A DNA stretch of 64,000 bases from IMG/VR virus record IMGVR_UViG_3300032288_005579; one strand, written 5' to 3'. The translations under genes and the position numbers were made by a program. The notes beneath the pieces are model-generated. The model did no database searches. It saw nothing but the letters and a program-made list of their open reading frames with translations, and was not told the origin of the DNA. Shown one piece after another: positions 5,908 through 33,902 of the stretch; the first letter of the stretch is position 1, and each line of letters starts with the position of its first letter. Source of the DNA: a virus.

Positions 5908-5908
5908 A

Positions 5909-6538
5909 ATGGCCAAAGAACTTCTGATAGAGTATTCGATATTCAAACCCCAAATGGGATTAAAAGAGGGGTTTCGAGCTTCCAACGGAAACATGGTCGT
6001 TAGCGGACAGGTGCAAGCGTGCGACAAGCCCAACGCAAACAAAAGAATATACCCATACGATACTCTAAAGAAACAGGTCGACCTATATTTAGACGGTCCG
6101 ATAAAAGAAAACAGGGCATTGGGTGAACTCGATCACCCTGAATCCTCAGTGATAAACTTAAAAAACGTTTCTCACATCATAAAGAACCTTTGGTGGGAGG
6201 ATAAAGATCTATACGGTACAGTGGAAGTTTTACCCACTCCCTCTGGAAACATACTCAAAGAGTTGTTCAAAAACAACATAACTGTTGGAATATCTTCGAG
6301 GGCACAGGGAAGCACCAGTCCCATAGGCGAAGGACTCGTTAAAGTAGAAGACGATCTAGAGATCATTTGTTGGGACTTCGTATCCCAGCCCTCTACTTAC
6401 GGTGCTTATATGAAACCTGTTTCTGGAATAAACGAATCCATAGATTACAATCAACGAATAGTAAATAACTACAGCAGAGCGAACGATCTGATGCGCAACA
6501 TAATTTGCGAAATGTCGGGTGTTTGTTGCGTGAAGTAA
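5909..6538 (+). CDS. gp21: Prohead core protease, T4 gp21-like
   Basis: PNANKRIYP, ALGELDHP, VGISSRAQGS and WDFVSQPS match gp21 His/Ser motifs. ATG 5909 follows the previous stop and is preferred over the ORF-track start 5792. Confidence 0.93.
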   Translation: MAKELLIEYSIFKPQMGLKEGFRASNGNMVVSGQVQACDKPNANKRIYPYDTLKKQVDLYLDGPIKENRALGELDHPESSVINLKNVSHIIKNLWWEDKDLYGTVEVLPTPSGNILKELFKNNITVGISSRAQGSTSPIGEGLVKVEDDLEIICWDFVSQPSTYGAYMKPVSGINESIDYNQRIVNNYSRANDLMRNIICEMSGVCCVK

Positions 6539-16922: not shown

Positions 16923-19900
16923 ATGAAGATATTCGACCCTAAATTAACAGGAAGCATAGAGTTTCAATCTCCGGTAAATTTTACTGGATCGATGCATGGT
17001 ACCGCGTCATGGGCGACTAATGTGGTAAACGGAGGGGGAGGATCACTAAGCGGAGGCGAACAAAACTACATAGCCCGTTGGGAATCTTCGAATACGCTAA
17101 CAACCAGTTCCATATACGAGGATCCTACAACACCGAGCGTCGCGATAGGCGGCGTACAAAACTTCGATCCCACAAACCCAGAAACTTTACTCGTCTCTGG
17201 ATCAGGCATCAACGTCATAAGTGGAAAAGTCGACATAGATAACTATACCCAATTAAATATCCAGAATACTTTCGCTGGAACTGCTGCTTCTTCGGACATA
17301 GTTGCCACAAACGACACTGGCGACGAGTTTGGAAATTACGTAGATCTTGGAATAAACAGTAGCCTTTATTCCGGATTTTTGGGTTCTCCCAACGAATCGT
17401 ACTTATACAATACGGGTTCTAACTTACTAATTGGAAACATAACTAGAGGAGAAAATGCGAATGTCAAACTATTTGCAGGAAACGATGCGACAGTGTTTCC
17501 GCTAATAGTAACGGGATCTCAAGTTTTGATAACAGGATCGATGTTCGGTACCTCCAGTTGGGCAGCTAGTTCGTCTGTGAACATATCTTCGTCTTACGCT
17601 TTAAGCGCATCATTCGCAGTAAGCGCATCTAATGCTCGCAGTGCGTCTTACGCAATCAGTTCCTCTAATGCGTTAAGTTCTTCTTACGCTATAAGTGCTT
17701 CAAACGCAAGTACAGCTTCTTACGTAGTCAATGCATTAACGGCGTCATTCGTAAATAACCTAAGTCAAAATCTTTCTATAACAGGATCTGTAACGATAAG
17801 TGGTTCTGCACAACAAGAACTCATAATATTGGGAGACCAACACTTAACAGGATCCTTATTCGTATCCAACTCAATAGTGCTAACTCCATCAGGAAGTTTA
17901 CTGGTGGCCTCAGGTTCTATAAGAGCGTTGTCTTTGACTGGAAGTTTGTTCGGAACTGCGTCTTTCGTATCCGGATCCGTATTCACTAGCGAAAATAGAG
18001 CGTTATCGTCTTCAAACGCAGTAAGTGCTTCTTACGCAATAAGCTCTTCTAATGCGTTAAGTTCTTCTTACGCTATAAGCGCTTCAAATTCAAGCACGGC
18101 TTCTTACGTAGTCAATGCGTTAACGTCCTCCTTCATAAACAATTTAAACCAGAACCTATCTATAACTGGATCAGTAAGAATAAGCGGTTCTGCTGCAGTA
18201 GAGCTATTCGTTTTAGGAGATCAACACGTGACGGGATCCCTATGGGTATCAAGTTCAGTAATCGTAACTCCCTCTGGAAGTATAGTGGTCGCCTCAGGCT
18301 CTATAAGGGCACTATCGATTACTGGAAGTTTATTTGGTACGGCGTCCTTCGTATCTGGTTCTGTATACACTTCTACAAACCCCGCGCTTTCCGCATCTTA
18401 CGCTTTTAGTTCTTCTTACGCGATAAGTTCCTCTTATTCTATAAGTTCGTCTTACGCAATAAGTGCTTCTTATTCCATAACATCGTCTTACGCCGTAACA
18501 TCGTCTAACTCTGTAAGTTCTTCTTACGCAATAACTTCTTCTTACGCTATAAATGCGTTTCCTTACAGCGGAAGTTCTGCGCAAATAACAGGATCTCTAT
18601 CAATAACTGGATCTCTTGCTTTATATTCTGCCTTAGATCCAGATTTATTGGGATCAAATACAGAAACAGCGTACTACTTTGTATCGAGGTCCCAATACAA
18701 TACCGCAGTTAACGACATATTCTATAGAAGCGCAGGAAATCTATGGAGCCAGGACTTTTTACAGCAAGCTGTAGATACAGGTATAATCTACGGTGGTATA
18801 GTGTCATTCACAGGTAGCGTAGAAGATACAGCGCCGTACACAACAGAAGTTAGAGTGACACCAGGCGTTGCTTTACTCATAGATCACAACGCCGAAACAG
18901 GATCGAAGGGGGAAACAGTACCCACTATAGTTAATTTTGGACCCATAACCCAATCTTTCAAAGATCAAGTTACTGGATCGCAAGTACATTATCTGTATAT
19001 AGATCAAGCGGGTACCCTTCAGTATCAAACTACCATTTTCAATACCTCGCAATATCACTCTGAATTTCCTCTGGGAGTCATATTCTCTTTGACGACTGAG
19101 AGCATATCCTCTTACGGAGATCTTAGAGTTACCGCTTACGGACAAACTCAACAATCGGGAGAATTTGTTAGAGCTTTTGGTCCTTTAAAAGTAAATGGAT
19201 TTGATATAAGTCCAATAAGCACGACTTTGAGTGCAAGCATAGCGTCAGGAAAATCTTACAGATTCGGGGGTTTTTACACACAAAACCCAGAAACCCCCTC
19301 TAGTTACAATTCTCCTGCGATTCCAACGGCGAGTTTCGTTAGGGTGTATAGAGATCCTGCAGTTTTAGGTGGATATAAAGCCCAAGTTTACGATAGCGGA
19401 CTTCCATTTAAAGGAATAGATCCCACGAAATACGACGATGGCAGTGGAACTTTACAAAGCGTAGGATCCGGCGAATTCACAATACAGCGTCTATTTCAAG
19501 GCGTTGTGAACGGCATAACATACGTTTACTACGGTCAAAACAAATATACAAGTTTAACCGCGGCTCTAAATAGCGTAACAACCGAAGATTTTTCAGAATC
19601 TCAAACTTCTATAATCACGCTTCCTTTTATAGGATACATTATAGTAGAAGGCACTGCGACGAGTTTAGCGGACACAAACACGAGTAGGATCATAAACGCT
19701 GGTCTGTTTAGAAACACCGCGGGTTCTTCAGGCGGCGGAGGTGCAGCTGTTACTAATTTGAACGATCTTGGAGACGTCGTAATAGGCGGAGCGGTTAACG
19801 GTCAAGCGCTTATATACAACACAGGAAACTGGATTAATGGAAATCCTACTTCAGCGTCTTACGCGAGTAGCGCTTCTTACGTAAATGGATCGATATTCGA

Positions 19901-21701
19901 TTCTAATAATCCTGTTCTCTCTTCTTCTTACGCTCTTACAGCGTCGTACGTAAACAGTTCTTCATACGCATACACCGCTTCTTACGTAACTGGATCGTCA
20001 TTCAATTCGACAAATTTAGCGCTATCTGCGTCTTACGCGATAACCGCGTCTTACGCTTTAAACGGAGGCGGAGGATCAGGCGTAAATGTGCAAGACGAAG
20101 GCGGCACGCCGTTCTCAGCAACGACTTTGAATTTTCAAGGCGCAGGAGTAACAGCGGCCGACGCAGGCGGAGGAACTGCAACGATAACGATATCAGGCGG
20201 ATCTGGGGAAACTTTCCCCTACACAGGTTCTGCTATCGTAAGCGGAAGCGTACGTGTAATAGAATCAGGATCTACGGGATTAGAGGTCACGGGATCTTCA
20301 AGGATTACTGGAAGTTTGATAGTGACAGGAAGCATAACAACTGACCATGGATTTACAGCGTTGTCTGTCACTGCGTCTTTCGTGTCGTCTTCTCAAATAA
20401 CAGGAAGTCTTTTTGGAAGTTCTTCTTTTGCTACAACTGCTTCTCACGCCTTAACGGCCTCTTACGTGCTTAACGCGCCCAGCTCAGATCCTTTCCCCTA
20501 TACAGGTTCTGCTGTGATAAGCGGTAGTTTGATACTCACAGGATCTTTTAGAACCCTCGCGTCTGGAACAGAGGGCGCAGCCGTATTCGGTGACGTTAAC
20601 ACATATTTAGAAGTGTTCGCGCAAAATAGAAACGCTGGAATAAGCGCTTCTACTGATATAGTCGCCTACAACGATCAAGGAAACAAGAGCCAATACTACG
20701 TCGATATGGGCATAAACGGATCTGGAATGGATCCTGCCTACACTTTTGGAAGACCCAACGACGCTTACGTGTACAATACAGGTGGAGATCTATTCATAGG
20801 AAACTCTACTGGATTTTATCAGCCTTCACTAACTTCGCAATCGCTACACCTGTTTGCCAATGCTGCAGGAATTCCAGATGTTACGCTGTCAGGCAGTAGA
20901 GTAGGCATAGAAAAATCTTCTTCGTTGAACGCCACTCTTGACGTGAACGGAAACACCATGATTAGTGGCACTCTGTTTGTGTCCGGAGCACACTACTTAG
21001 ATTTAGATGTCAAAGGAAACTCAGCGATATCAGGAACTCTTTTCCTAACCTCTTCAAATTCAACAGAGTATTTAGCACTGTGGATGAATGGGGATTCCGA
21101 AATATCTGGAACGATATACATCACTTCGTCTAGAAACAATACATCTATAGAATCCATAGGGGACATAGTGATTAGCGGAAGCATATACGCTTCAGCTTCA
21201 TTCGGTCCGGATGTTCTTAGAGCAGTAGGAAATACGAAATACACTGGATCTTTCATGATCACGAGCTCGGGAGTTTCTACAGAGAGAGAACTTGTCGTGA
21301 ATGGTGAAGCAGTTGTCACAGGATCATTAATAGTATCAGGTTCCGGTGGATTCGGAGTTTTCTCTAAGGGATTCACACTAGCTGACTTAACAAGTACGTT
21401 CACCGTTACCGGATCTTATCACGTCTGGAGAGCGCCGTTCTCTTGCTCGGTGGTCGGAATATGGGCTTTCAAATCAGGAAGCACAGATCCCCAAATAAAC
21501 GCAAGACGTAGCGGATCTGGTGCATCTTTACACTTAGCAACGAATCTAACGATCGCTAACGATAATCAATGGACTTCTGGAGGAAGCGTACAGAACACAA
21601 CTTACGCAGGCGGCGATTCTCTAGAAGTGATAATATCGGGAAGCACACAATACCAAGTGTCCGTACAGGTGGACTTCATAAAACTACAACGTAGAACATA
21701 A
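16923..21701 (+). CDS. Tail fibre protein 2 (Ser/Gly/Thr-rich, modular)
   Basis: 1592 aa with many xTGS/xSGS and SxSYA motifs, a roughly 128-aa internal duplication and modules shared with fibre 1. Confidence 0.75.
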   Translation: MKIFDPKLTGSIEFQSPVNFTGSMHGTASWATNVVNGGGGSLSGGEQNYIARWESSNTLTTSSIYEDPTTPSVAIGGVQNFDPTNPETLLVSGSGINVISGKVDIDNYTQLNIQNTFAGTAASSDIVATNDTGDEFGNYVDLGINSSLYSGFLGSPNESYLYNTGSNLLIGNITRGENANVKLFAGNDATVFPLIVTGSQVLITGSMFGTSSWAASSSVNISSSYALSASFAVSASNARSASYAISSSNALSSSYAISASNASTASYVVNALTASFVNNLSQNLSITGSVTISGSAQQELIILGDQHLTGSLFVSNSIVLTPSGSLLVASGSIRALSLTGSLFGTASFVSGSVFTSENRALSSSNAVSASYAISSSNALSSSYAISASNSSTASYVVNALTSSFINNLNQNLSITGSVRISGSAAVELFVLGDQHVTGSLWVSSSVIVTPSGSIVVASGSIRALSITGSLFGTASFVSGSVYTSTNPALSASYAFSSSYAISSSYSISSSYAISASYSITSSYAVTSSNSVSSSYAITSSYAINAFPYSGSSAQITGSLSITGSLALYSALDPDLLGSNTETAYYFVSRSQYNTAVNDIFYRSAGNLWSQDFLQQAVDTGIIYGGIVSFTGSVEDTAPYTTEVRVTPGVALLIDHNAETGSKGETVPTIVNFGPITQSFKDQVTGSQVHYLYIDQAGTLQYQTTIFNTSQYHSEFPLGVIFSLTTESISSYGDLRVTAYGQTQQSGEFVRAFGPLKVNGFDISPISTTLSASIASGKSYRFGGFYTQNPETPSSYNSPAIPTASFVRVYRDPAVLGGYKAQVYDSGLPFKGIDPTKYDDGSGTLQSVGSGEFTIQRLFQGVVNGITYVYYGQNKYTSLTAALNSVTTEDFSESQTSIITLPFIGYIIVEGTATSLADTNTSRIINAGLFRNTAGSSGGGGAAVTNLNDLGDVVIGGAVNGQALIYNTGNWINGNPTSASYASSASYVNGSIFDSNNPVLSSSYALTASYVNSSSYAYTASYVTGSSFNSTNLALSASYAITASYALNGGGGSGVNVQDEGGTPFSATTLNFQGAGVTAADAGGGTATITISGGSGETFPYTGSAIVSGSVRVIESGSTGLEVTGSSRITGSLIVTGSITTDHGFTALSVTASFVSSSQITGSLFGSSSFATTASHALTASYVLNAPSSDPFPYTGSAVISGSLILTGSFRTLASGTEGAAVFGDVNTYLEVFAQNRNAGISASTDIVAYNDQGNKSQYYVDMGINGSGMDPAYTFGRPNDAYVYNTGGDLFIGNSTGFYQPSLTSQSLHLFANAAGIPDVTLSGSRVGIEKSSSLNATLDVNGNTMISGTLFVSGAHYLDLDVKGNSAISGTLFLTSSNSTEYLALWMNGDSEISGTIYITSSRNNTSIESIGDIVISGSIYASASFGPDVLRAVGNTKYTGSFMITSSGVSTERELVVNGEAVVTGSLIVSGSGGFGVFSKGFTLADLTSTFTVTGSYHVWRAPFSCSVVGIWAFKSGSTDPQINARRSGSGASLHLATNLTIANDNQWTSGGSVQNTTYAGGDSLEVIISGSTQYQVSVQVDFIKLQRRT

Positions 21702-21713
21702 AAATAGTTTTTC

Positions 21714-22481
21714 ATGGCGTTAGTATCGCAATCATTTACTACAGTCGGCACATCCTCCTTCTACATTCCCTCAGGAGTAACTTACGTACAAGTCAGAGCT
21801 TGGGCTGGTGGAGGAGGCGGAGGTGGAAAAACTAACACCAACGGAACAGCAGGTGGAGGTGGAGGTGGAGCATTTGTTTCCGGTGCATTGAACGTTTTTC
21901 CCGGAGAAAGACTATCAATAGTTGTCGGAAGCGCAGGTACAGCAGGTCCCGCTTCGGATACTGCAGGCGGTAACGGCGGGTATTCTTACGTAACATCCTC
22001 GGCTAATTCTAGTATTTTCGTAAGAGCAGATTTTGGAGACGCTGGAGGCGGAGGTAATGCTGGAGTGGGAGGTCCCGGAGGGGCGGCATCGTTGTGCTCT
22101 ACAGGTAGTCCAAATATCAGTGGATTTGCTTTTAACGGAGGATCAGGTTCTGCTGGATCAGGCGCAACCACGGGATCAGGCGGAGGAGGCGGAGCTGGAA
22201 CTGTGAGAGCGGGCACTAGAGGCACGGGATCTTTTGGTGGAACAGGTAGCATTTTGTTCGGTGGAAACGGTGGAGTTGGAGCATCAAATGCAGCAGGTGG
22301 CGCTGCCGCTTCTACCTCGGGATCATTTAACGTATACGGTGGAGGTGGCGGAGGAGGATCTAGATCCGCCGGCGGCGGTAAAGGTGGGGGAGTAGGAAGG
22401 CAGGGTTACGTGGAAATATATTATGAAACACTTGACACTCAACCGGTATTTATACATTGGATAGACGACGAAGAGTATTGA
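21714..22481 (+). CDS. Glycine-rich fibre-tip/adhesin-like protein
   Basis: SFYIPSGVTYVQVRAWAGGGGGGG, multiple GGGGG runs and C-terminal GRQGYVEIYY. This is typical of phage Gly-rich (polyglycine II) domains. Confidence 0.7.
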   Translation: MALVSQSFTTVGTSSFYIPSGVTYVQVRAWAGGGGGGGKTNTNGTAGGGGGGAFVSGALNVFPGERLSIVVGSAGTAGPASDTAGGNGGYSYVTSSANSSIFVRADFGDAGGGGNAGVGGPGGAASLCSTGSPNISGFAFNGGSGSAGSGATTGSGGGGGAGTVRAGTRGTGSFGGTGSILFGGNGGVGASNAAGGAAASTSGSFNVYGGGGGGGSRSAGGGKGGGVGRQGYVEIYYETLDTQPVFIHWIDDEEY

Positions 22482-22524
22482 TAAAAGGTTGTTTACTTTT
22501 GGAAAGTGAAAAAAGTAAAAACGC

Positions 22525-22974
22525 ATGGCAAACGAATTCATAGCCAGGAATGGCATAATAGCAAGAAGTAATTCCGTAATAACGGGATCCCTATCGGTTA
22601 GTTCGTCTCTTTCTATAGGGGACATACAACCGTCTGCCACGATAGGCAGATTGGACGCATCAAACGACATAGTAGCTTTCAACAGCTCTGATAAAAGATT
22701 CAAAACGAACATAACTCCCATAGAGAATGCGCTTGAAAAAGTGCAGAAGATAAACGGCGTTGAATTCGATTGGATACCCGATCCGGTGAATCACGGGTAC
22801 CAGGGTCACGATGTCGGAGTGATAGCTCAAGAGATCGAGGAGGTCGTCCCAGAATTAGTAAGGACTAGGAACAGCGGTTACAAAGCCGTTAAATACGATA
22901 AGATAGTAGCACTACTAATAGAAGCGATAAAAGACCTTAAGAAAGAGATAGACGAACTGAAGAAAGGGAAGTAA
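22525..22974 (+). CDS. Peptidase S74 / intramolecular chaperone domain protein
   Basis: SSDKRFKTNI..IENALEKV..INGVEFDW, GVIAQEIEEVVPELV and VKYDKIVALLIEAIKDL, ending in a coiled coil. Confidence 0.92.
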   Translation: MANEFIARNGIIARSNSVITGSLSVSSSLSIGDIQPSATIGRLDASNDIVAFNSSDKRFKTNITPIENALEKVQKINGVEFDWIPDPVNHGYQGHDVGVIAQEIEEVVPELVRTRNSGYKAVKYDKIVALLIEAIKDLKKEIDELKKGK

Positions 22975-22976
22975 CC

Positions 22977-25900
22977 ATGCCTATACCCGCTTCAGGTCCG
23001 ATATCGATGAGTATGATGAATACGGAGCTGGGTAGGATACCCAATGCTCCTGTATCGATATTGGCCGGGGGACTGGTTCCCATAGAGGGATCTTTGTTTT
23101 GGTTGGGAGGACAGAGCGGTAGTTTAAACCAAACTGCGCCCCACTACTTCAGCGAATGGTACAATTATACTCCTAACAATTCCCCCACTCCTACACCTAC
23201 AGTATCTGTAACTGTAAGCGTTACTCCTACAGTTGGTATATCTTCTACGCCTAGTGTGAGCGTGACTCCGACAAAGAGTATCACTCCTACTATAAGCATA
23301 ACACCTACCATAAGTGTAACTTCTACGATCAGCGTTACTCCCACAATCAGCGTAACTCCAACTATAAGTGTAACTAAAACAATCACACCTACGATTAGCG
23401 TTACACAGACTACAAGCGTGACTGCTACTATAAGTTTAACTCCTACTATAAGCGTTACAAGAAGCGTTAGCATTACTCCCACGATAAGTATCACGACGAC
23501 CGTTACCCCTACAAATACTGCTACTCCTACGATAAGTGTCACTCCCACCATCAGCGTCACTCCTACTATTAGTTTGACTCCAACAATAAGCATTACTTCC
23601 ACCATCAGTGTCACTCCAACTAGAACAGCGACTGTAAGCGTAACTCCCACGATAAGTATAACTCCTACTATAAGCGTAACTAGCACAATTACTCCAACTA
23701 CTAGTGTAACTCCTACTATTAGTATAACACCTAGCATAAGTATTACGCCGACAATCAGCGTCACTCCTACTATTAGTATTACATCTACGATTAGCGCTAC
23801 AGCTGGAATAAGTCTTACTCCTACGGTAAGCATTACACCTACAATCAGTGTTACATCCACTATAACTCCTACAATAAGTACTACTCCCACTATAAGCATT
23901 ACACCTACTATTAGTATAACAAGCAGCATTACTCCCACTGTTAGTATTACACCCACCATTAGTGTTACTTCAACAATTAGCGTTACTCCTACCGTAAGTG
24001 TAACTAGAACAGTAACTCCTACGATAAGTGTTACTCCTACAATCAGTGTTACTCCTACCGTAAGTGTAACTAGTACAATAACTCCTACATTAAGCATTAC
24101 ACCTACTAATAGTATAACTCCTACTATAAGCGTAACTAGCACAATTACTCCCACTACTAGTGTAACTCCTACTATCAGCATTACTCCTACAATTAGCGTT
24201 ACATCGACGGTAACTCCCACTATTAGTGTAACACAGACTATTAGCGTAACTCCCACAATTAGTGTAACAACTACTGTTACGCCGACTATAAGTATTACTC
24301 CTACCATCAGTGTTACTTCTACAATAAGCTCAACCCCGGGAATAAGTCTCACTCCTACTGTGAGTATCACACCCACGATAAGTATAACTCCTACTATAAG
24401 CGTAACTAGCACAATTACTCCCACTACTAGTACTACGCCTACAATATCTATCACTCCAACTATAAGCATAACTTCCACTCCAACTCCTACTATTAGCGTC
24501 ACTCCCACAATTAGCATTACTCGAACCGCTAGTATAACTCCTACAATAAGCATAACCAATACGACTACTCCTACCATTAGCGTAAGTCCCACTATAAGTG
24601 TTACGCCAACTATTAGTATCACGCCTACAATAAGCATAACAAGTACCATTACGCCTACTATTAGCGTGACTAAAACAGCTACGATTACTCCAACAATCAG
24701 TATAACTCCTACTAGGACAATAACTCCAACGATAAGCGTAACTACAACGATTACTCCTACAATTAGTGTTACACAGACCGCAAGTATTACGCCTACAATA
24801 AGCGTAACTAGCACAATTACTCCTACAATTAGTGTAACGCCTAGCATGAGCATTACTTCCACAATTAGCGTTACGCCTACTATAAGTGTAACTAGAACAG
24901 TTACTCCCACGATCAGCATCACTCCAACTATAAGTGTTAGTCCAACGATAAGTGTAACAAGCACCGTTACGCCTACAATTAGTGTTACGCCGACTATAAG
25001 CGTTACTCCCACTATTAGTGTCACTTCCACAATAAGCGCAACTCCTGGAATAAGTACAACACCTACTGTCAGCATTACACCCACTATTAGTGTAACCGCG
25101 AGCATTACTCCAACTATCAGTATAACTCCAACTATTAGCATTACACCAACAATCAGCGTCACTCAAACGGTTAGTGTTACACCCACTATTAGTATTACTC
25201 AAACTGCTAGCATTACACCAACCACTAGTATAACTCCTACAATAAGTGTGACTAGTAGCGTTACTCCTACTATAAGCGTTAGTGCTACGGCGAGTGTTAC
25301 TCCTACTATAAGTGTAACTAATACAATAACACCAACAATCAGTATCACTCCGACTATATCAATCACTCCTACCATAAGTCTTACCCCCACAATCAGCGTT
25401 ACTAGATCTGTTACGCCTACTATAAGCGTCACTCCCACCATCAGCATTACACCGACTATAAGCATCACGCCTACTATAAGTGTAACTAGTACAATTACGC
25501 CTACCATAAGTGTAACTAGAACCGCAACTCCTACAATAAGTGTTACTCCTACCATAAGCGTAACACCTACCATAAGTGTAACTAGAACCGCAACTCCTAC
25601 AATAAGTGTTACTCCTACAATCAGCATCACTTCTACTATAACGGCTACTACCAGTGTTACACCCACAATTAGTATTACACCTACTATAAGTGTAACTAAA
25701 ACTGTAACTCCTACAATTAGTATTACTCCTACTATAAGTGTAACACCGACTATAAGTGTCACATCAACAGTTACCCCTACTATAAGCGCTACTCCTACGA
25801 TTAGTATCACTCCGACTATATCAATCACTCCTACCACAAGTATCACTCCGACCATTAGTATTACCCCCACAATCAGTGTTACCAGAACAGCAACTATTAC

Positions 25901-27857
25901 GCCTACGATCAGTGTTACTCCCACAATTAGCGTTACACCAACTATCAGTGTGACTCCTACGATTAGCATTACTCCTACTAGAACGGCCACTATCAGCGTT
26001 ACACCCACTATTAGCGTGACGCCAACCATAAGTGTCACTTCTACAATTACTCCCACAACGAGCGTTACTCCTACGATATCTATTACGCCTACGATTAGCG
26101 TAACCAAAACCATTACGCCAACAATAAGCATTACTCCAACGATCTCTATAACTCCCACTATTAGTATTACTTCTACTATAAGTGTTACGCCAACCATAAG
26201 TGTCACTTCAAGCGTTAGTGCAACTCCGACAATAAGCATTAGTCCTACTAGAACTGCTACAATAAGCGTTACACCGACTATAAGCATAACGCCCACAATA
26301 AGTGTAACTATAACTGTTACTCCCACTATTAGTATCACGCCTACGATTAGTATAACGCCCACAATAAGTGTAACTAGTAGCATAACTCCTACTATCAGCG
26401 TTACTCAAACCGCTAGCATAACTCCTACAATCAGTATTACTAGAACTGTAACTATAACTCCTACAATTAGTGTTACGCCTACAGTAACTCCTACAATCAG
26501 CATTACACAGACTTCATCAATTACTCCCACTATCAGTGTAACACCTACAATTAGTATTACGCGAACTGTTACTATAACTCCTACCATAAGCATAACGCAA
26601 ACGGCAACTATTACTTCAACGATCAGTGTAACTCCAACTATAAGTGTAACTCAAACAACTACAGTAACTCCGACAATTAGTGTTACGCCAACTATCAGTA
26701 TTACTAGAACCGCAACTATTACGCCTACTATAAGCATTACTCCTACAATAAGCATTACTCAAACTCCTACCATTACGCCTACTATTAGCATAACTCCTAC
26801 AACTACTATAACGCCAACCATCAGCATAACTCCTACAATCAGTATTACTAGAACCGTAACTATAACTCCTACTATAAGCATTACTCCTACAACAAGCGTT
26901 ACTCCAACTATATCTATAACTCCCACTATTAGCATAACTCCTACTATCAGCATTACACGTACTATAAGTGTGACTAGCACTGCTACACCAACGATCAGCG
27001 TAACTCCAACCATCAGCATTACTCCAAGTACCAGCGTAACTCCAACCATCAGCATAACTCCTACAATAAGTGTAACTCCTACAATTAGTATTACGCAAAC
27101 TGCAACCATTACTCCAACCATCAGCATAACTCCTACTATTAGTATTACAAGAACTCCTACCATTACGCCTACTATTAGCATAACTCCTACAACTACTATA
27201 ACGCCAACCATCAGCATAACTAGAACCGCAACTATTACTCCTACTATTAGCATAACTCCTACAATAAGTGTTACAAAAACTGCTACTATTAGCATAACTC
27301 CTACGAGGACAGCCACTATTAGCATTACACCAACAAGAACTCCTACCATTACACCTACTATTAGCATAACTCCTACGAGGACAGCCACTATTAGCATTAC
27401 ACCAACAAGAACTCCTACCATTACACCTACTATTAGCATAACTCCTACGAGGACGCCTAGTATTACGGCTACCCCAGTAACAGATCGCACGATAAATATA
27501 TATGTAAGTAATCAAGCGACTGTTACCATTAATGGACCTCTACAAACTTTTTATAAAATAGGAGTTGGAGGAAGCTGGACATTATTCAATAATACTTTTA
27601 ATAGTACAACGTGTACTAACCTTGGATCGGTATCGGTTCCTAACGGATCTTTGTTATATATCGGATTCCAAGACGCAAATAATGTAAACGTAGGTTTCGA
27701 TGCTGTGGCGCCCGGAACAAGTAGCACTACATGCCCTACTTTTACCGGTGTGGCTGACTACTGTAGAGATACATCTGATTGGTCTGATACTATAAATGCT
27801 AATGGTAGTAGAGCATTCACAATACAAGTAACAGGCGGAGAATATGTAGGTTGTTAA
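22977..27857 (+). CDS. Mucin-like Thr/Ser/Pro/Ile hexapeptide-repeat virion protein
   Basis: About 70-aa N-terminus (MPIPASGPISMSMMNTELG...PHYFSEWYNY), about 1430 aa of TPTIS(I/V) repeats and a roughly 125-aa C-terminal domain with four Cys. Confidence 0.85.
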   Translation: MPIPASGPISMSMMNTELGRIPNAPVSILAGGLVPIEGSLFWLGGQSGSLNQTAPHYFSEWYNYTPNNSPTPTPTVSVTVSVTPTVGISSTPSVSVTPTKSITPTISITPTISVTSTISVTPTISVTPTISVTKTITPTISVTQTTSVTATISLTPTISVTRSVSITPTISITTTVTPTNTATPTISVTPTISVTPTISLTPTISITSTISVTPTRTATVSVTPTISITPTISVTSTITPTTSVTPTISITPSISITPTISVTPTISITSTISATAGISLTPTVSITPTISVTSTITPTISTTPTISITPTISITSSITPTVSITPTISVTSTISVTPTVSVTRTVTPTISVTPTISVTPTVSVTSTITPTLSITPTNSITPTISVTSTITPTTSVTPTISITPTISVTSTVTPTISVTQTISVTPTISVTTTVTPTISITPTISVTSTISSTPGISLTPTVSITPTISITPTISVTSTITPTTSTTPTISITPTISITSTPTPTISVTPTISITRTASITPTISITNTTTPTISVSPTISVTPTISITPTISITSTITPTISVTKTATITPTISITPTRTITPTISVTTTITPTISVTQTASITPTISVTSTITPTISVTPSMSITSTISVTPTISVTRTVTPTISITPTISVSPTISVTSTVTPTISVTPTISVTPTISVTSTISATPGISTTPTVSITPTISVTASITPTISITPTISITPTISVTQTVSVTPTISITQTASITPTTSITPTISVTSSVTPTISVSATASVTPTISVTNTITPTISITPTISITPTISLTPTISVTRSVTPTISVTPTISITPTISITPTISVTSTITPTISVTRTATPTISVTPTISVTPTISVTRTATPTISVTPTISITSTITATTSVTPTISITPTISVTKTVTPTISITPTISVTPTISVTSTVTPTISATPTISITPTISITPTTSITPTISITPTISVTRTATITPTISVTPTISVTPTISVTPTISITPTRTATISVTPTISVTPTISVTSTITPTTSVTPTISITPTISVTKTITPTISITPTISITPTISITSTISVTPTISVTSSVSATPTISISPTRTATISVTPTISITPTISVTITVTPTISITPTISITPTISVTSSITPTISVTQTASITPTISITRTVTITPTISVTPTVTPTISITQTSSITPTISVTPTISITRTVTITPTISITQTATITSTISVTPTISVTQTTTVTPTISVTPTISITRTATITPTISITPTISITQTPTITPTISITPTTTITPTISITPTISITRTVTITPTISITPTTSVTPTISITPTISITPTISITRTISVTSTATPTISVTPTISITPSTSVTPTISITPTISVTPTISITQTATITPTISITPTISITRTPTITPTISITPTTTITPTISITRTATITPTISITPTISVTKTATISITPTRTATISITPTRTPTITPTISITPTRTATISITPTRTPTITPTISITPTRTPSITATPVTDRTINIYVSNQATVTINGPLQTFYKIGVGGSWTLFNNTFNSTTCTNLGSVSVPNGSLLYIGFQDANNVNVGFDAVAPGTSSTTCPTFTGVADYCRDTSDWSDTINANGSRAFTIQVTGGEYVGC
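23187..27476 (+). repeat. 18-bp-period coding repeat, roughly 235-240 hexapeptide units
   Basis: Consensus ACTCCTAC(A/T)AT(A/T)AG(C/T)(A/G)T(T/A), G-poor on the + strand. Unit number was estimated from length. Confidence 0.95.
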
Positions 27858-27942: not shown

Positions 27943-29199
27943 ATGGCAAAAATATTTGTTTCGATAGCTTCATACAGAGATCCAGAATTACTTCCTACTT
28001 TAAGAGATTGTATCGCTAACGCCGATCAACCAGATAATCTGGTATTCGGTATATGTTGGCAACACGCAAAAGAGGACGAGTGGGATAACTTAGATCAATT
28101 TAAAAAAGACAAAAGGTTCAGGATACTTGACATAGATCACAAGGAATCAAAGGGCGTTTGTTGGGCAAGGAATAAAATAGGGTCTTTATATAAAGACGAG
28201 GACTATTATATGCAATTGGATTCTCACCACCGTTTCATACAGGGTTGGGACTCCAAATTAAAGGACATGATAGGTTATCTACAGTCCCAGTGTTACGAAA
28301 AACCCATACTCTCTACCTATCTGCCTTCCTATTTTCCTGAAAAAGATCCAGCAGATAGAACTCAAGAGGTTTGGTTTTTAAACATAGATAGGTTTTTACC
28401 AGAGGGCGCAGTATTCCTACGTCCACAGGGTTTAGACGGATGGAGAGATATGAAAGAGCCAGTTAGATCCAGATTCTTATCAGCTCACTTTATATTTACT
28501 CTTGGTAAATTCGCTAAAGAGGTTCCTTACGATCCGTATCTGTATTTTCACGGAGAAGAAACTTCATTGGCGGCTAGAGCTTTTACTCATGGGTACGATA
28601 TATTTAATCCTCACAGGATATATGTTTGGCACGAATACACGAGAGAAGGAAAGAAAAAACACTGGGACGATCACACCTCATATCCGGACCTTGATAAGAC
28701 CTCTTACGCGCGTTTTAGAAAGCTTTTTGCGATGGAAGGAGAATGTACTCCGTGTACGATAAAGAGTTTTGGAGAATTTTATTTTGGAAACGAAAGAACT
28801 CTTGAAGAGTACGAACGTTACGCGGGATTAAAGTTTAAAACCAGACAAATACACGAAGAGACTCTACAACACAAACCTGCCCCTATTGTAGGAGATTACG
28901 AATCGGGATTGAAGAGCAAAGTGAAAGTTTGTATAGACGTGTATAGAGGGGCTTTAAAAGAAACCGATTACGATACTTTCGTTATCGCTCTACTAGACGA
29001 AAACGGAAAGGATTTGTATAGACAAGACGCTGATAAAAACGAGATCTCTATGATCATGAATTCTGACATTAAAGACCAATTTGTGCACATTTGGAGAGAA
29101 TACGAAAGCCAAAAATTGCCTCACAGTTGGAGAGTTTGGCCCCATAGCGAATCAAAAGGTTGGATGGAAAGAATAGAAAACGTTATAAAATATGAGTAA
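27943..29199 (+). CDS. GT60/Gnt1-like polypeptide alpha-GlcNAc transferase (GlcNAc family), paralog A
   Basis: IFVSIASYRDPEL, FGICWQ, KGVCWAR, YYMQLDSHHRF..GWD, VPYDP.LYFHGEETSLAARAFTHGYDIFNP and VWHEYTR match Dictyostelium Gnt1-type motifs. Confidence 0.88.
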   Translation: MAKIFVSIASYRDPELLPTLRDCIANADQPDNLVFGICWQHAKEDEWDNLDQFKKDKRFRILDIDHKESKGVCWARNKIGSLYKDEDYYMQLDSHHRFIQGWDSKLKDMIGYLQSQCYEKPILSTYLPSYFPEKDPADRTQEVWFLNIDRFLPEGAVFLRPQGLDGWRDMKEPVRSRFLSAHFIFTLGKFAKEVPYDPYLYFHGEETSLAARAFTHGYDIFNPHRIYVWHEYTREGKKKHWDDHTSYPDLDKTSYARFRKLFAMEGECTPCTIKSFGEFYFGNERTLEEYERYAGLKFKTRQIHEETLQHKPAPIVGDYESGLKSKVKVCIDVYRGALKETDYDTFVIALLDENGKDLYRQDADKNEISMIMNSDIKDQFVHIWREYESQKLPHSWRVWPHSESKGWMERIENVIKYE

Positions 29200-30460
29200 G
29201 AAACTAGAGACAATACTGCTGCATCTTCCCTCTTACAGGGATCCAGAACTTATACCCACAATCAAAGACGCTTTAGAAAAAGCGAAATATCCCAAAAGGA
29301 TTCATTTCGGAATATGCCGTCAATACCACCCTGAAGATAAGTTTGACGATCTGACAGAATACAAATCGGACAAACGATTCAAGATTTACGAGTGTTTGTA
29401 TACGGAGGCAAAAGGACTTCCCTGGGCGAGATCTATCATAAATGAGAAGCTGCTTGACGACGAAGACTACATATGTCAATTGGACTCACATCACAGATTC
29501 GCTCAAGATTGGGACGAGACTCTTATAACTATGCACAACGACCTTGAGAAGAGGGGCTACAAGAAACCTATCGTTGCTGGTTATTCTCCTCTGTACGATC
29601 CGTTCAACGACCCAGCAGGAAGATCGATGGAACCGTGGCAATCTCAGTTCGTATGCTTCTATCCCCACGGTACTATATTTATTCGACCAGGTTTGTTGCA
29701 CGGTTACCAAAACATGACAGAGCCACCGATGTCTAGGTTCCTCTGCGGGCATTTCGATTTCGCAAGAAGCGAATGGGCTAGAGAGATCAAGCACGATCCA
29801 GACATCTACTTTAGCGGTGAGGAAATAAATCTCACAGTAAGATCTTACACTCACGGTTACGATTTCTTTCATCCACATAAGATCGTAGTTTGGCATTCGA
29901 CAATGAGAGAAGAGCGCGCTGGAAAATTGAAATGGGACGATGATGCTAGATTGGGCGTTGATTGGTATAATAAACAAGAATATGCTCGCAGAAAAATACG
30001 CTGCTTACTTCGCACAGAAGAGGGTGTCGATTTAACGGGTTACGATTTGGGCACAGTTAGAACTTTGCGAGATTACGAAAGATACGCAGGATTCAACTTT
30101 AAAAAGAAAGCTGTTCAAAAATATACTCTAGAAAATAAATATCCTCCGAACCCTGTGATAGAGGATCCCGAACTATGGGAACAATCATTCATGAATTCGT
30201 ACTATCATCTCGTAGACGTACAAAGGTCTATGTTCAAAGAAGATAAATATAAATTTGTGTTGGTAGCTTTTGATGACGAGACTGGTAAATCTGTCAATAG
30301 TAAATTTATAGACGATTATAGATTGGAAATGTTTAATAAGGGCCAAAATATTCATTACGAAGAGTACTTCTTATCAGAAAAGAAGCCTACACGAGTAGTG
30401 TATTGGGGACACACTGAAGAAAAAGGCTGGTGCGAAAGGTACGAATTCAATATAGGATAA
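29192..30460 (+). CDS. GT60/Gnt1-like polypeptide alpha-GlcNAc transferase, paralog B
   Basis: ILLHLPSYRDPEL, FGICRQ, KGLPWAR, CQLDSHHRFAQDWD, DPDIYFSGEEINLTVRSYTHGYDFFHP and VWHSTMR. Confidence 0.86.
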   Translation: MSKKLETILLHLPSYRDPELIPTIKDALEKAKYPKRIHFGICRQYHPEDKFDDLTEYKSDKRFKIYECLYTEAKGLPWARSIINEKLLDDEDYICQLDSHHRFAQDWDETLITMHNDLEKRGYKKPIVAGYSPLYDPFNDPAGRSMEPWQSQFVCFYPHGTIFIRPGLLHGYQNMTEPPMSRFLCGHFDFARSEWAREIKHDPDIYFSGEEINLTVRSYTHGYDFFHPHKIVVWHSTMREERAGKLKWDDDARLGVDWYNKQEYARRKIRCLLRTEEGVDLTGYDLGTVRTLRDYERYAGFNFKKKAVQKYTLENKYPPNPVIEDPELWEQSFMNSYYHLVDVQRSMFKEDKYKFVLVAFDDETGKSVNSKFIDDYRLEMFNKGQNIHYEEYFLSEKKPTRVVYWGHTEEKGWCERYEFNIG

Positions 30461-30477
30461 CAAAAAGATAGAACATA

Positions 30478-32097
30478 ATGGCTAACATATCTTTTTACGG
30501 TTCGCACAACGCTGCGTATGTCGTAGAGAAAGACGGAGAGATTATACTAGTATTAGAGGTAGAGAGATTCTTAAACCACAAGAATAGTGGAATCGCCCAG
30601 TATAATTGTCCAAGAACTGACGATATTCTGTTTTTCGCAGAGTATATTCCTAAATGGATCATGAAAAAATTGGACATAGAAGAATTTGACAATTGCTTTT
30701 ATTCTAATAGCGATGTGATAATGGACGAAGTTCGTTATTGTTTACATAAAGCCATACCCGCCAAAAAATATACAGAGTGTTGGCATCACCAATCTCACGC
30801 AGCTGGAGCTTTTTATCAATCTAATCACAAGAAAGCATTGATATTCTCTTTCGACGGAGGAGGAAATGATGGAAAATTTTGTGTGTACACTTGCAATAGA
30901 GGAGAGTCTCCAAAATTATTGAAGAGCGTATTAAATCCTGTGCTGAATCATCCTCATATAGGTTATGATTTGGGATTTCCCTACATGGTATTAGCGCACT
31001 ATCTAAAAGATATAAAGTACGAAGATCTGGGAATGGGTAACTTAGTTTATCCTGGAAAACTTATGGGTCTTGCGTCATATGGAAAAGTTATTGAAGATTG
31101 GATACCCGCTTTCACAAAATTTTATAAGAGTAATCCAGATGGAGGAAATTATCACAGTAAAGTAAGCGAACTTTCTGAAGAAATTGGAGTAGTATTCGAT
31201 GTTAATAATCGTCTTGATGGACAAATCGCCTACGACATAGCGGCCACAACTCAGAGAGTGTTCGAAGATTGTTTCTTAGAAATCGCTAAACCCTATATTG
31301 ATGAGTACCCTGATTATCCCATTTGTGTAACAGGAGGATGCGGATTAAACATCATATTGAACACTAGATTAGTCACAGAATTAGAAAAAGAAGTTTTCGT
31401 AGGACCAGATCCAAATGATTGTGGAATTGCATTAGGAATGATGCTCAATTACTTGAAGCCAGCAAAACCTTACGATTCCACCTACTCAGGAACAGAACTA
31501 CTAGATATAGATACGCTTTCGGCTAAAATACAGGGCGTAGGATTCCCTATGAAGAGTCGAAGACTAAATCTTACAAATCTAGCAAAAGATATTGAAGCAG
31601 GCAAAATAGTGGGAGTAGCTAGAGGGAGATCAGAACACGGTCCTCGAGCACTAGGAAATAGAAGCATAATTTGCAATCCCGCAATCGCTAACATGAAAGA
31701 CGTGCTTAATGAAAAGGTAAAACACAGAGAGTGGTATAGGCCTTTTGCGCCCGTGGTTAGATTAGAAGATGTCAATAAGTACTTTGAATGGAATAAAGAA
31801 TCCAGATGGATGAGTTTTTGTCCCAAAGTAAAAGAAGAGTGGAAAAGCAGACTTGGAGCTATAACCCACGTAGATGGAACCGCGAGAGTTCAAACTGTTA
31901 CTAGAAAACAAAACGAATTCTTATACGATCTATTGACTGAATTTGAAAAGGTGACTGGCGTGGGAGTTTTACTCAATACCTCATTTAATGTGGACGGTAA
32001 ACCTATACTATCTACCGTTCAAGACGCTTTTACAATTCTAGAGAAGACACAGTTGGACGCATTAGTAATAGAAAATACCTACATCAAAAAATTATGA
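30478..32097 (+). CDS. Carbamoyltransferase, NodU/CmcH/TobZ family
   Basis: HHQSHAAGAF, DGGG, GKLMGLASYG, GGCGLN, NDCGIALG, GRSEHGPRALGNRSI, KHREWYRPFAP, HVDGTARVQTV and LLNTSFNVDGKPI. Confidence 0.95.
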   Translation: MANISFYGSHNAAYVVEKDGEIILVLEVERFLNHKNSGIAQYNCPRTDDILFFAEYIPKWIMKKLDIEEFDNCFYSNSDVIMDEVRYCLHKAIPAKKYTECWHHQSHAAGAFYQSNHKKALIFSFDGGGNDGKFCVYTCNRGESPKLLKSVLNPVLNHPHIGYDLGFPYMVLAHYLKDIKYEDLGMGNLVYPGKLMGLASYGKVIEDWIPAFTKFYKSNPDGGNYHSKVSELSEEIGVVFDVNNRLDGQIAYDIAATTQRVFEDCFLEIAKPYIDEYPDYPICVTGGCGLNIILNTRLVTELEKEVFVGPDPNDCGIALGMMLNYLKPAKPYDSTYSGTELLDIDTLSAKIQGVGFPMKSRRLNLTNLAKDIEAGKIVGVARGRSEHGPRALGNRSIICNPAIANMKDVLNEKVKHREWYRPFAPVVRLEDVNKYFEWNKESRWMSFCPKVKEEWKSRLGAITHVDGTARVQTVTRKQNEFLYDLLTEFEKVTGVGVLLNTSFNVDGKPILSTVQDAFTILEKTQLDALVIENTYIKKL

Positions 32098-33902
32098 ACC
32101 TACCAGAAAATTTAAAAGATATATTCAATAAAGTCAGAAGCTTATCAAATGAAGAGTTTAGTACGCTTGTTTCCGCTTTACAAGAAGCTCCTAAAAAAAT
32201 GGAAATATTGAATAAAGAACTCACAGTTGTCACTGGTTTATGGAACATAAATAGACCCGGTAGAGATTTCTCCCACTACATAGAGCACTTTGAGAAGTTT
32301 CTACAAATCCCAGTCAACATGTTTATATACATACCTCAAGAATACGAATACTTGGTATGGAAACACAGAGATCGAGAGAATACATACGTAAAGATATATG
32401 AATTAGACGATGTAAAACGTCTGTATGAACCTTTTTGGGAAAATACCCAAAACATTCGAAATAATCCCGAGTGGTTGAATCAAACCGGCGAAAACGGTTG
32501 GTTGAAAGGTTCGCCGCAAGCGTCTATAGAGTTTTACAATCCTATAGTACAATCAAAGATGTTCATGTTGAGCGATGCGACTATATGGGATCCTTTCCAA
32601 TCCGAGTATTTTATGTGGCTAGACGCGGGCATAACAAATACTGTATGGGAAAATTATATGATAAACGATCGAGTTCTCGATAAAATCAATAAACATCTTG
32701 ACGCGTTTTTATTTCTTTCATATCCATACGAAACGCAAGAAGAAATTCACGGATTTAGAAAGAACGAGATGGATAAAATGGCAGGAAAATCTGTCAAATA
32801 TGTTTGCCGAGGGGGATTATTCGGAGGAAGAAAAGAATTAATAAGATCAGCGAATGCAGAATACTATACGTTGCTTGATTCCTCATTATCTCGAGGTTTT
32901 ATGGGAACCGAAGAGAGTATTTTTACAATAATGTCCTATCTAAATCCATATAATTATAGACGATACGAACTTGACTCAAATGGGTTGATAGTAAAGTACA
33001 TACAGAATTTGGCGCAGGATACAGCCGAACTAGCTTCCACCCCCGAAAGGAATGTCAGTATAAAGAACAACAATCCAGCGATAAATCATTTAAAAACTTC
33101 GCTGTACATGTTGACTTTCAATTTCCCTGAACAGGTCGAACACACTCTTAAAACATTTGAAGACAATTCGCCTGATTGGTTAAAGAAAACTAGAAAAATT
33201 CTTATAGATAATTCTACTAACGATGAGGCTAGAATAAAAAATAGAGAGATCTCAGATAAATGGGGATTTGAACACATAATTAGGAATGAAAATACGGGCA
33301 TCAACGGAGGTCGTCAATTTGCCGCTGAACATTTTGATGCTTCTGATAGCGACTACTACTTCTTTTTTGAAGACGATATGGGACTTCACCCTTCCACAGA
33401 AACAGGATACTGTAGAAACGGATTCAGAAAATATGTTCCTAATCTGTATAACAGTCTTCACAAGATCATGGTGAGAGAGAACTTCGATTTTTTGAAATTC
33501 TCATTCACAGAGGTTTATATGGACAATCACATACAGGTTTCTTGGTATAATGTACCACAAATAGTGAGAACACGGGATTTCCCAGACTACGATCAACTGC
33601 CTATAACGGGTTTCGATCCCAATGCACCAAGAACTAAATTTGAAAACATAGACGTTTTTGATGGATTAGCGTACATATCAGGAAACATTTATTACGCCAA
33701 TTGGCCTATGATAATGAGTAGAGAGGGCAATAAGAAAGTGTTTTTGACCACAACTTGGGGTAGACCTTACGAACAAACTTGGATGTCTTATGTATATCAA
33801 GAGTGTCTAGAGGGCCGAATAAAACCCGGAATCTTGTTAGCTTCACCAGTAAATCACAATAGAATATCGCATTATAAGCCTGAAGATCGGCGAGAAAACT
33901 AA
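32094..33902 (+). CDS. Two-domain glycan enzyme: HtrL/YibB-like N-terminal domain plus GT-A (GT2-like) C-terminal domain
   Basis: TVVTGLWNI, KMFML.DA...DPF.SEYFMWLDAG, GGLFGG and GTEESI (HtrL-like). LTFNFP, ILIDNS, NTGINGGRQ and YFFFEDD (GT-A DxD-like). Confidence 0.78.
   Translation: MNLPENLKDIFNKVRSLSNEEFSTLVSALQEAPKKMEILNKELTVVTGLWNINRPGRDFSHYIEHFEKFLQIPVNMFIYIPQEYEYLVWKHRDRENTYVKIYELDDVKRLYEPFWENTQNIRNNPEWLNQTGENGWLKGSPQASIEFYNPIVQSKMFMLSDATIWDPFQSEYFMWLDAGITNTVWENYMINDRVLDKINKHLDAFLFLSYPYETQEEIHGFRKNEMDKMAGKSVKYVCRGGLFGGRKELIRSANAEYYTLLDSSLSRGFMGTEESIFTIMSYLNPYNYRRYELDSNGLIVKYIQNLAQDTAELASTPERNVSIKNNNPAINHLKTSLYMLTFNFPEQVEHTLKTFEDNSPDWLKKTRKILIDNSTNDEARIKNREISDKWGFEHIIRNENTGINGGRQFAAEHFDASDSDYYFFFEDDMGLHPSTETGYCRNGFRKYVPNLYNSLHKIMVRENFDFLKFSFTEVYMDNHIQVSWYNVPQIVRTRDFPDYDQLPITGFDPNAPRTKFENIDVFDGLAYISGNIYYANWPMIMSREGNKKVFLTTTWGRPYEQTWMSYVYQECLEGRIKPGILLASPVNHNRISHYKPEDRREN

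Follow-up and report, generated by a model that had tools for sequence, protein, structure and literature searches.

The IMG/VR virus record IMGVR_UViG_3300032288_005579 contains a single open reading frame (ORF) of 1,626 amino acids (22977-27857, plus strand), referred to here as the target gene, in which an array of 715 (T/S)-X dipeptides lies between an N-terminal module (N-module) and a C-terminal beta-sandwich tip. Coordinates are those of the window, that is, the whole stretch of 64,000 nucleotides that was analysed. Analysis of the sequence suggests that the product of the target gene is probably a phage-made, O-glycosylated tether, which resembles mucins or serine-rich repeat proteins (SRRPs). 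We base this reading on the sequence pattern, the domain architecture, the homology of both ends, synteny, the family of the neighbouring enzymes and the co-occurrence of such arrays with GT60 glycosyltransferases in other viruses. That the array is glycosylated, that the protein is part of the virion, where it docks and what a tether would be for are inferences from these observations.

The three parts of the target gene were recognized in different ways. The N-module of ~65 residues (22977-23186, plus strand), a putative docking or anchor domain, is also the start of proteins in 71 viral loci. The array (23187-27476, plus strand), a putative O-glycan acceptor stalk, is defined by its composition, phase, register and DNA divergence. 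The tip (27477-27857, plus strand, with the stop codon) was identified by its relatives and by AlphaFold2. An earlier note, written by a model that saw only the DNA letters and their ORFs, had placed the repeat at the same coordinates; they are exactly in frame and correspond to residues 71-1500 (1,430 residues). The target gene starts 3 nt after the upstream stop codon. Sequence prediction revealed neither a signal peptide nor a transmembrane (TM) segment in the protein, which ends in YVGC, and an LPXTG motif is absent. The long ORFs on the minus strand across the array are shadows of the repeat. Orthologs of the target gene are present at two loci, L024 and L025.

Composition and register of the array

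The 1,430 residues of the array comprise 524 T, 278 I, 238 S, 181 P, 122 V, 31 A and 24 R, with the rarer Q (11), K (6), L (6), G (4), N (4) and M (1). D, E, aromatic residues, C and H were counted zero times, so that the absence of acidic and aromatic residues claimed by the earlier note was confirmed. T and S make up 53% and P 12.7% of the array, and it thus shows the Thr/Ser/Pro dominance by which mucin-like (PTS) domains are recognized. Its basic unit is a dipeptide: T or S occupies 711 of the 715 alternate positions and Gly the other four, and all 181 prolines are in the non-hydroxyl phase. An example of the array-type peptide is TPTISVTPTISV. The same note had described a T-P-T-I-S-(I/V) hexapeptide with few register breaks. 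The motif is indeed the commonest arrangement, but the hexapeptide is irregular and only 130 exact TPTIS[I/V] units exist. Likewise, the period of two is never lost from one end of the array to the other, but the register modulo 6 changes 53 times. The three even hexapeptide registers are used 62, 61 and 58 times, and strict hexamers continue for 36 residues at most. Spacings from Pro to Pro are mostly 6 (98 times), 10 (36 times), 12 (26 times) and 4 (8 times), and spacings of 8, 14, 16 and 18 also occur. Tandem Repeats Finder (TRF) reported periods of 18, 30, 36, 48, 66, 84 and 90 nt.

The array is neither a product of chance nor an artefact of recent slippage, because the 130 exact units are written in 109 distinct DNA versions (mean pairwise identity 0.78-0.80) and only ~3% of array positions lie inside exact 40-mer repeats, among them a 72-nt duplication of recent origin close to the 3' end. 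It is an old array whose peptide pattern is under purifying selection. Ser is encoded by AGY in 87% of cases within the array and in 28% in the other genes of the window; AGY is a single base change away from ACY (Thr) and ATY (Ile). Almost all codons of the array are A-N-Y/A-N-N, CCN or GTN, which results in a GC skew near -0.4. The whole protein matches phrog_15511 (E 4e-65). Because this match comes from the repeat alone, and neither end domain matches any PHROG, it was set aside as evidence of homology.

It had been proposed in the earlier note that this repeat forms a hexapeptide beta-helix rod with a T-x-T ladder that orders water or ice. The array does share a six-residue local motif, aliphatic residues and T-x-T triplets (as in T-P-T-I-S-V) with left-handed beta-helices and ice-binding solenoids, and the sole left-handed-helix match was a weak similarity to GMPPB_C, at 18.1 bits below the cut-off of 39. 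However, Pro is frequent and the hexapeptide register is not kept across successive 18-residue coils. The coils of constant length that a solenoid or an ice ladder needs for stacking are missing from the array. No Pfam match at E <=0.01 was found to hexapeptide (PF00132 type), ice-nucleation, insect antifreeze or DUF3494 families, and the adjacent glycosylation genes would mask the hydroxyl face. AlphaFold2 was run on the N-module with the first 120 residues of the array, and the array had a pLDDT of 32-45 without any secondary structure or repeat fold, in a monomer run in which the array is covered by only three sequences. Moreover, N, Q, E or P can stand where this array has I/V in the arrays of other phages, and relatives have poly-Thr or TP linkers, or no linker, at this position. 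On these grounds neither the beta-solenoid nor the ice-binding reading is supported, and such a rod is hardly credible for this protein. The note had also reasoned that mucin-like domains lack regular alternation. This premise is weak, since SRRPs show strict hydroxyl-X alternation with hydrophobic X in a glycosylated extended stalk, in which Ser alternates with L, N, V, M and E, for example in SLSNSVSMSE repeated 91 times (PMC6973325).

Putative glycosylation enzymes encoded downstream of the array

The note's alternative idea, that the hydroxyl residues are an array of glycan acceptors, gained support from the genes directly downstream and from the co-occurrence described below. Two paralogous genes on the plus strand encode GT60-type glycosyltransferases (PF11397), the first at 27943-29199 (Pfam E 1.3e-72, 245.6 bits) and the second at 29192-30460 (E 9e-48, 164 bits; the cut-off is 21 for both). 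The paralogs are 41% identical to each other, and neither has a TM segment. D93-S94-H95 is invariant across 13 phage sequences (both paralogs and 11 homologs), and by analogy we assign this D-S-H as the putative GT-A metal-binding motif of phage GT60 enzymes. A sequence search with paralog 1 against PDB chains gave no match at E <=0.01. These genes are followed on the same strand by a NodU/Nol-type carbamoyltransferase (30478-32097; Pfam Carbam_trans_N and Carbam_trans_C, PHROG 1601) and by a two-domain protein (32094-33902), which is HtrL/YibB-like (HtrL_YibB 9.8e-10) with a weak GT2 part (Glycos_transf_2 at 5.5e-4, below cut-off) and is a putative glycan-extending enzyme.

PF11397 corresponds to CAZy family GT60, the UDP-GlcNAc:polypeptide alpha-GlcNAc-transferases, which, in Dictyostelium and Trypanosoma cruzi, initiate O-glycosylation of the mucin type on arrays rich in Thr; a known peptide acceptor is KPPTTTTTTTTKPP, and the enzyme that modifies hydroxyproline of Skp1 is a soluble cytoplasmic member of the family (PMC8724618, PMC3769586). 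The characterised GT60 enzymes all act on Thr, Ser or Hyp of polypeptides (PMC8724618).

According to the reading that we favour, the target protein would be associated with the virion of a large myovirus and would combine anchor, stalk and tip in one chain; its synthesis would fall late in infection. The N-module would dock on the virion, most likely at the end of the long tail fibre that carries an S74 chaperone. The two soluble GT60 paralogs would add GlcNAc to up to ~700 Thr/Ser residues in the host cytoplasm. Extension and capping of these sugars would then fall to the HtrL/GT2 protein and the carbamoyltransferase. The sugar coat would keep the beta-prone, I/V-rich chain soluble, stiff and protease-resistant. 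The outcome would be a bottle-brush tether, an extended spacer in place of a folded beta-helix, and the four-Cys beta-sandwich would be an exchangeable distal domain that binds a host or environmental ligand. The length per residue is ~0.25 nm in mucins and ~0.35 nm in a chain that is fully extended. At 0.25-0.35 nm per residue the stalk would span ~0.36-0.5 micrometre, and a solenoid of the same number of residues ~38 nm.

Co-occurrence of arrays and GT60 genes in viruses

We examined the association between arrays and GT60 from both sides. Starting from the enzyme, 9 of 11 distinct GT60-bearing viral contigs had, within their 10-kb flanks, a (T/S)-X array of 30 or more dipeptides. In 70 phage loci without the glycosyltransferase (918 kb), not a single locus had an array of even 20 dipeptides (Fisher p 2e-10, a value that ignores kinship, as does the one given next). 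In most of the 11 contigs the glycosyltransferase is only 43-50% identical to that of the window, and the array motifs differ (TPSVTQ, TSSISV, TPSITR and others). In the opposite direction, a degenerate DNA pattern for three successive TP(S/T)(V/I) units matched more than 120 viral stretches, and PF11397 was found in 16 of 44 array records, most of which are fragments, and in 1 of 50 array-less N-module records (p 1.5e-5). The two sets are of similar total size (3.08 and 2.98 Mb), the control set was selected by the N-module, and several of the positives may share ancestry. In the window and its orthologs, and in L012, L013, L120, L107 and L116, the array gene is directly followed by the GT60 gene on the same strand; in L145 the GT60 gene comes ~1.1 kb after the array gene. 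L120, L107, L116 and L145 are the four short stretches from the array search that include a GT60 gene.

Among the 16 GT60-positive array records, four have a tandem pair and one has a fused double enzyme of 897 residues. The tandem pairs are in the array-bearing records G004, G006, G007 and G011, echoing the paralogs of the window, and the fused pair is an open frame at G044:C1:38136-40457, in the record of L134. We also observed very long arrays of the TPTNTPTNTVTPTN type. The run of consecutive (T/S)-X dipeptides is at least 1,720 units long in L147:508-13224 and at least 1,446 in L170:1-10995; the ORFs that contain these runs, of at least 4,239 residues in L147 and at least 3,665 in L170, extend past the ends of the loci. 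GT60 was not found in the records of L147 and L170, which are only 23% and 50% complete, respectively.

Cultured phages also have both components. GT60 homologs (38-42% identity) were found in 4 of 50,697 cultured phage records, namely the Xanthomonas phages XacN1 and Xoo-sp13 and the Stenotrophomonas phages CM1 and RAS14. The homolog of XacN1, ORF334, is 40% identical, and in both XacN1 and Xoo-sp13 the gene adjoins a carbamoyltransferase gene. A pattern of nine alternate Thr codons matched 97 times in XacN1 and 38 times in Xoo-sp13, and the reversed control pattern had 0 matches. The matches in XacN1 lie partly in the large hypothetical proteins ORF369, ORF370, ORF372 and ORF384; ORF384 has 2,823 residues and is annotated as a glycerophosphoryl diester phosphodiesterase. 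T-X arrays of XacN1 (AP018399.1) are located at about 83.5, 89.7, 127.6, 131, 236.8, 250-260.5 and 273-275 kb, and those of Xoo-sp13 (MN047793.1) at many sites. The giant proteins near GT60 in these phages, XacN1 ORF325 and Xoosp13_296, were considered as array proteins and rejected, having short TP linkers only. XacN1 virions contain at least two periodic-acid-Schiff-positive proteins, seen as stained bands (PMC5852040, Supplementary Fig. S4).

Several observations weigh against the glycosylated tether. GT60 was not detected in 28 of the 44 array records, most of which are fragments, although two are ~90% complete. The co-occurrence of arrays and GT60 could partly reflect shared ancestry of large aquatic phages. 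The stained bands of XacN1 are not tied to array proteins or to GT60. Incorporation into the virion and docking on the fibre are read from gene order. The low AlphaFold2 confidence on the array is weak evidence, because of the monomer run and the three sequences over the array. Finally, no other array compared has as much I/V as that of the window, and few have as little Pro; since the window's array stands at this beta-branched extreme, beta-rich assembly or self-association peculiar to its lineage may occur.

The array records without GT60 would also suit a reading in which the array is simply a long, disordered Thr/Pro linker left without sugars by the phage, with GT60 and the carbamoyltransferase acting on the host envelope, on DNA or on another virion protein such as the upstream S/T-rich fibres. 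In XacN1 and Xoo-sp13 the GT60-carbamoyltransferase pair is near replication genes and not beside an array gene, and the GT60 contigs L014 and L015 show only S/T/A-rich fibre repeats nearby. Such a bare linker is nevertheless quite unlikely. It does not account for the enrichment seen in both directions and the repeated same-strand adjacency of array and GT60 genes, it does not fit the polypeptide specificity of the characterised GT60 enzymes (PMC8724618), and an unglycosylated T/I/V chain of 1,430 residues would be expected to be very prone to aggregation.

The composition of the window's array bears on another alternative, in which the array is a folded, mostly unglycosylated beta-rich shaft (trimeric or cross-beta) with its I/V/P face buried and Thr/Ser exposed, and the glycosyltransferase cluster acts elsewhere or decorates the surface. 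Alternation of polar and non-polar beta-branched residues is the classic pattern of an amphipathic beta-strand, phage fibres are usually trimeric, and the target gene sits among fibre genes. Of the arrays compared, that of the window also has the largest I/V share (0.56), and its Pro share is low (0.25). However, Pro occurs every 4-18 residues at irregular spacing and always in the 'hydrophobic' phase, and AlphaFold2 shows no structure in the array. Across the 50-odd independent arrays, only the hydroxyl phase and a Pro share of 16-66% are conserved. The share of I/V at X positions falls from its maximum in the window to 0.02, N/Q reach up to 0.36 and some D/E occur. Related arrays thus swap I/V for N, Q or E, and because of this fall a hydrophobic core is not a defining trait of the array class. 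Array length also varies greatly between close orthologs, and homologs hold poly-Thr or TP linkers, or no spacer, at the same position. We therefore regard a folded shaft as unlikely.

Terminal domains and their relatives

The ends of the target protein are shared with proteins that have a different middle part. The earlier note was right that a four-Cys beta domain caps the repeat: AlphaFold2 modelled the 126-residue tip as an all-beta sandwich with a pLDDT of 92.9. Nine relatives of the tip, the best with 68% identity, emerged from an exhaustive HMMER scan of 1.84 billion representatives and were used for this model. In P0002, P0007 and P0008, the tip domain stands behind TP or poly-Thr linkers and other N-terminal domains. 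P0010, a metagenome protein of 314 residues, has two copies of the tip domain, joined and flanked by poly-Thr, so that the domain is used elsewhere as a bead on Thr strings. P0003, P0005 and P0009 have both the tip domain and an N-module of the target type, with identities to the N-module of the target of 53%, 37% and 31%, respectively. P0003 carries poly-Thr linkers between the two domains, and P0005 (177 residues) consists of the N-module and the C-terminal domain with no spacer. Because these relatives share both ends with another linker or none, the array appears to occupy a linker position between a conserved 'anchor' and an exchangeable 'tip', where its length is free to vary.

Foldseek against PDB and BFVD and a wide VIA-align search gave only generic beta-sandwich matches: Ig-like, pilin-adhesin and CBM20/25/41-like folds with TM <=0.53 and Z <=7.0, a level that the search tool itself classes as common. 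No function of the tip was assigned from these matches. Among the N-module loci, giant arrays are found only in L024 and L025, the two close relatives of this phage, whose N-modules are 99% and 93% identical to that of the target. There, a first array of at least 820 or at least 1,154 residues is followed by an internal globular domain of ~240 residues and a second array, and the tips contain Cys and are unrelated to the tip of the window. In the 50,697 cultured phage records, no match was found by megablast with 9 kb of the window or by tblastn with the C-terminal domain and the N-module, and a pattern scan of IMG/VR with peptides of the C-terminal domain found no relative.

The 71 IMG/VR loci carry the N-module on proteins with many different C-terminal domains, usually of 76-774 residues. 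P4, S6, G7, I9 and E17 of the module are nearly invariant, and no Pfam or PHROG family matched it. AlphaFold2 with an alignment of 45 sequences predicted three short helices (pLDDT 63-77). A recurrent feature is the gene before it. An S74 domain ends at most 400 nt upstream of the start codon of the N-module in 52 of the 65 loci that have enough upstream sequence, and the same order holds in the contigs of P0003. Among the loci in which the gap is <=100 nt, the distance from stop to start is -16 to +11 nt in most, and the S74-bearing ORFs have a median of 1,319 residues and a maximum of 2,518. In the window, a Peptidase_S74 intramolecular chaperone ORF of 149 residues (22525-22974, plus strand; Pfam E 7.5e-19, PHROG tail-fibre families) forms the end of the upstream fibre. 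A Ser-Asp pair, S55-D56 of this ORF, is invariant in the alignment of fibre ends; we take it to be the self-cleavage site, as in endosialidase-type chaperones. Because of this synteny, the N-module family can be placed, from sequence, as a small gene directly after a long tail-fibre gene, and the synteny suggests that the N-module docks on the matured end of the fibre.

The long fibre at 16923-22974 appears to be split in three ORFs, of 1,592 residues, 255 residues (Gly_rich_2) and 149 residues (S74). The 1,592-residue and Gly_rich_2 ORFs share a frame, with one stop codon and 12 nt between them; the S74 piece uses a different frame, which is open only from 22519. This layout is common to L024 and L025, and in most other loci the S74 domain terminates one long ORF. 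The S/G/T-rich protein of 1,592 residues and the Gly_rich_2 protein (together 16923-22481, plus strand) are kept upstream of the ortholog in L024 and L025.

The target protein could also act outside the virion, released at lysis or placed on the cell as a glycoprotein matrix, decoy or superinfection barrier. It matches no recognized structural-protein family. However, the gene is embedded in a structural operon and translationally coupled to the fibre gene, N-module genes follow long fibre genes in most loci, the protein lacks a signal peptide and a TM segment, and the swappable tips resemble receptor-binding modules. We consider a role outside the virion highly unlikely.

Genomic setting

All genes of the window are on one strand and form the late structural module of a myovirus. 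It begins with the portal (414-2345), the protease (5792-6538), the major capsid protein (7964-9685) and an adaptor (9776-10942), all on the plus strand. A protein of 426 residues between the protease and the capsid protein (6658-7938; 21% Glu, 12% Lys, 12% Gly) is probably the scaffold. Two giant S/T/A-rich proteins (13025-16921 and 16923-21701, plus strand) and the Gly_rich_2 protein (21714-22481, plus strand) precede the S74 ORF. The giant pair (1,298 and 1,592 residues, also rich in Gly) has 17-18% Ser and SxSYxTTSS-like repeats, and ORFs with repeats of this kind are the sole S/T-rich ORFs near GT60 in L014 and L015. The pair may be further substrates of GT60. The glycosyltransferase cluster is followed by the sheath, tube, tape measure, a giant lysin-bearing protein and replication genes. 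A second protein of 1,626 residues (45443-50323), which has the length of the target protein by coincidence and an ordinary composition, carries a C-terminal amidase/endolysin-like domain (PHROG 1794, 1493) and is probably a tail-associated lysin. By the capsid protein, the nearest cultured phages are Flavobacterium myoviruses (53%) and a Microcystis phage (47%). The best guess for the host is a bacterium of the Flavobacterium type.

Comparison with known systems and implications

The enzymes have their closest known counterparts in protists. Dictyostelium Gnt1/Gnt2 and T. cruzi TcOGNT-2 belong to the same family PF11397, have a conserved D-x-H motif and act on Thr-rich acceptor arrays with Pro, like the array of the window. 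Skp1 Gnt1 is soluble and cytoplasmic, and the phage GT60 enzymes appear to be likewise. Unlike the protist enzymes, those described here are phage-encoded, would act in the bacterial cytoplasm as predicted transferases and have a carbamoyltransferase in the cluster. The acceptor also differs: it is a strict dipeptide array with I/V between the hydroxyl residues, in contrast to the T8KP2-type runs of the protist systems.

The stalk itself resembles that of SRRPs. Fap1, GspB and the SRRP of L. reuteri share with the target protein hundreds of alternating hydroxyl-X dipeptides, in which X includes V, L and M, and in these systems gene-adjacent enzymes add GlcNAc in the cytoplasm and a long stalk presents a binding domain (PMC6973325). 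SRRPs, however, use GtfA/GtfB (GT4), aSec export and an LPXTG anchor, and their binding region is N-terminal to the long array, whereas the window has more Thr than Ser, frequent Pro, GT60 enzymes and a phage N-module as the anchor. The target protein is not an SRRP, because its neighbours are PF11397 and not GT4, its N-terminus is the N-module and LPXTG is absent, though it may work like one.

Among phages, small tip adhesins of the T2/S16 gp38 type are encoded immediately after the long fibre gene; they attach by a conserved N-terminal part and bind by a variable C-terminal one. The N-module gene of the window resembles them in gene position and in the layout of anchor and tip; in contrast to gp38, there is no relation in sequence or fold, an S74 chaperone ends the upstream fibre, and an array of 1,430 residues is inserted. 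Glycosylation of virions by phage enzymes has precedent in mycobacteriophages. According to the work of Freeman et al. 2023, as cited in PMC12619734, phage glycosyltransferases modify the phage's own structural proteins; the sites described there are on short C-terminal tails of capsid and tail-tube subunits, in contrast to a tether with ~700 sites here. XacN1 has a GT60 homolog beside a carbamoyltransferase, many T-X arrays and stained virion glycoproteins. The question is directly testable, because XacN1 is cultured and has the enzyme, the arrays and the stained virion glycoproteins. In the open-access literature on phage GT60, virion O-glycosylation and Thr-rich or mucin-like phage proteins, we found no paper describing GT60 with Thr-X arrays in phages.

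Should the array be glycosylated, phages would carry self-contained mucin-type O-glycosylation by a family so far characterised only in protists, with substrates of up to hundreds or thousands of sites. The annotation of long Thr/Pro 'low-complexity' ORFs of phages would then change, the target protein would be a new, flexible kind of appendage on the virion that bears on host capture, resistance to proteases and recognition by the immune system, and soluble enzymes would become available for building dense O-GlcNAc arrays in bacteria. As a more tentative extension, we think it possible that large aquatic phages and the cultured jumbo phages of Xanthomonas possess a cytoplasmic mucin-type O-glycosylation pathway of their own, with GT60 initiators, extending glycosyltransferases, a carbamoyltransferase and (T/S)-X acceptor arrays, and that here it has turned a fibre-tip adhesin into a sugar-coated 'fishing line' of ~0.4 micrometre that holds a receptor-binding domain beyond the fibre. 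If this is true, the tether would represent a new class of virion appendage and the first counterpart of eukaryotic mucins in a bacterial virus.

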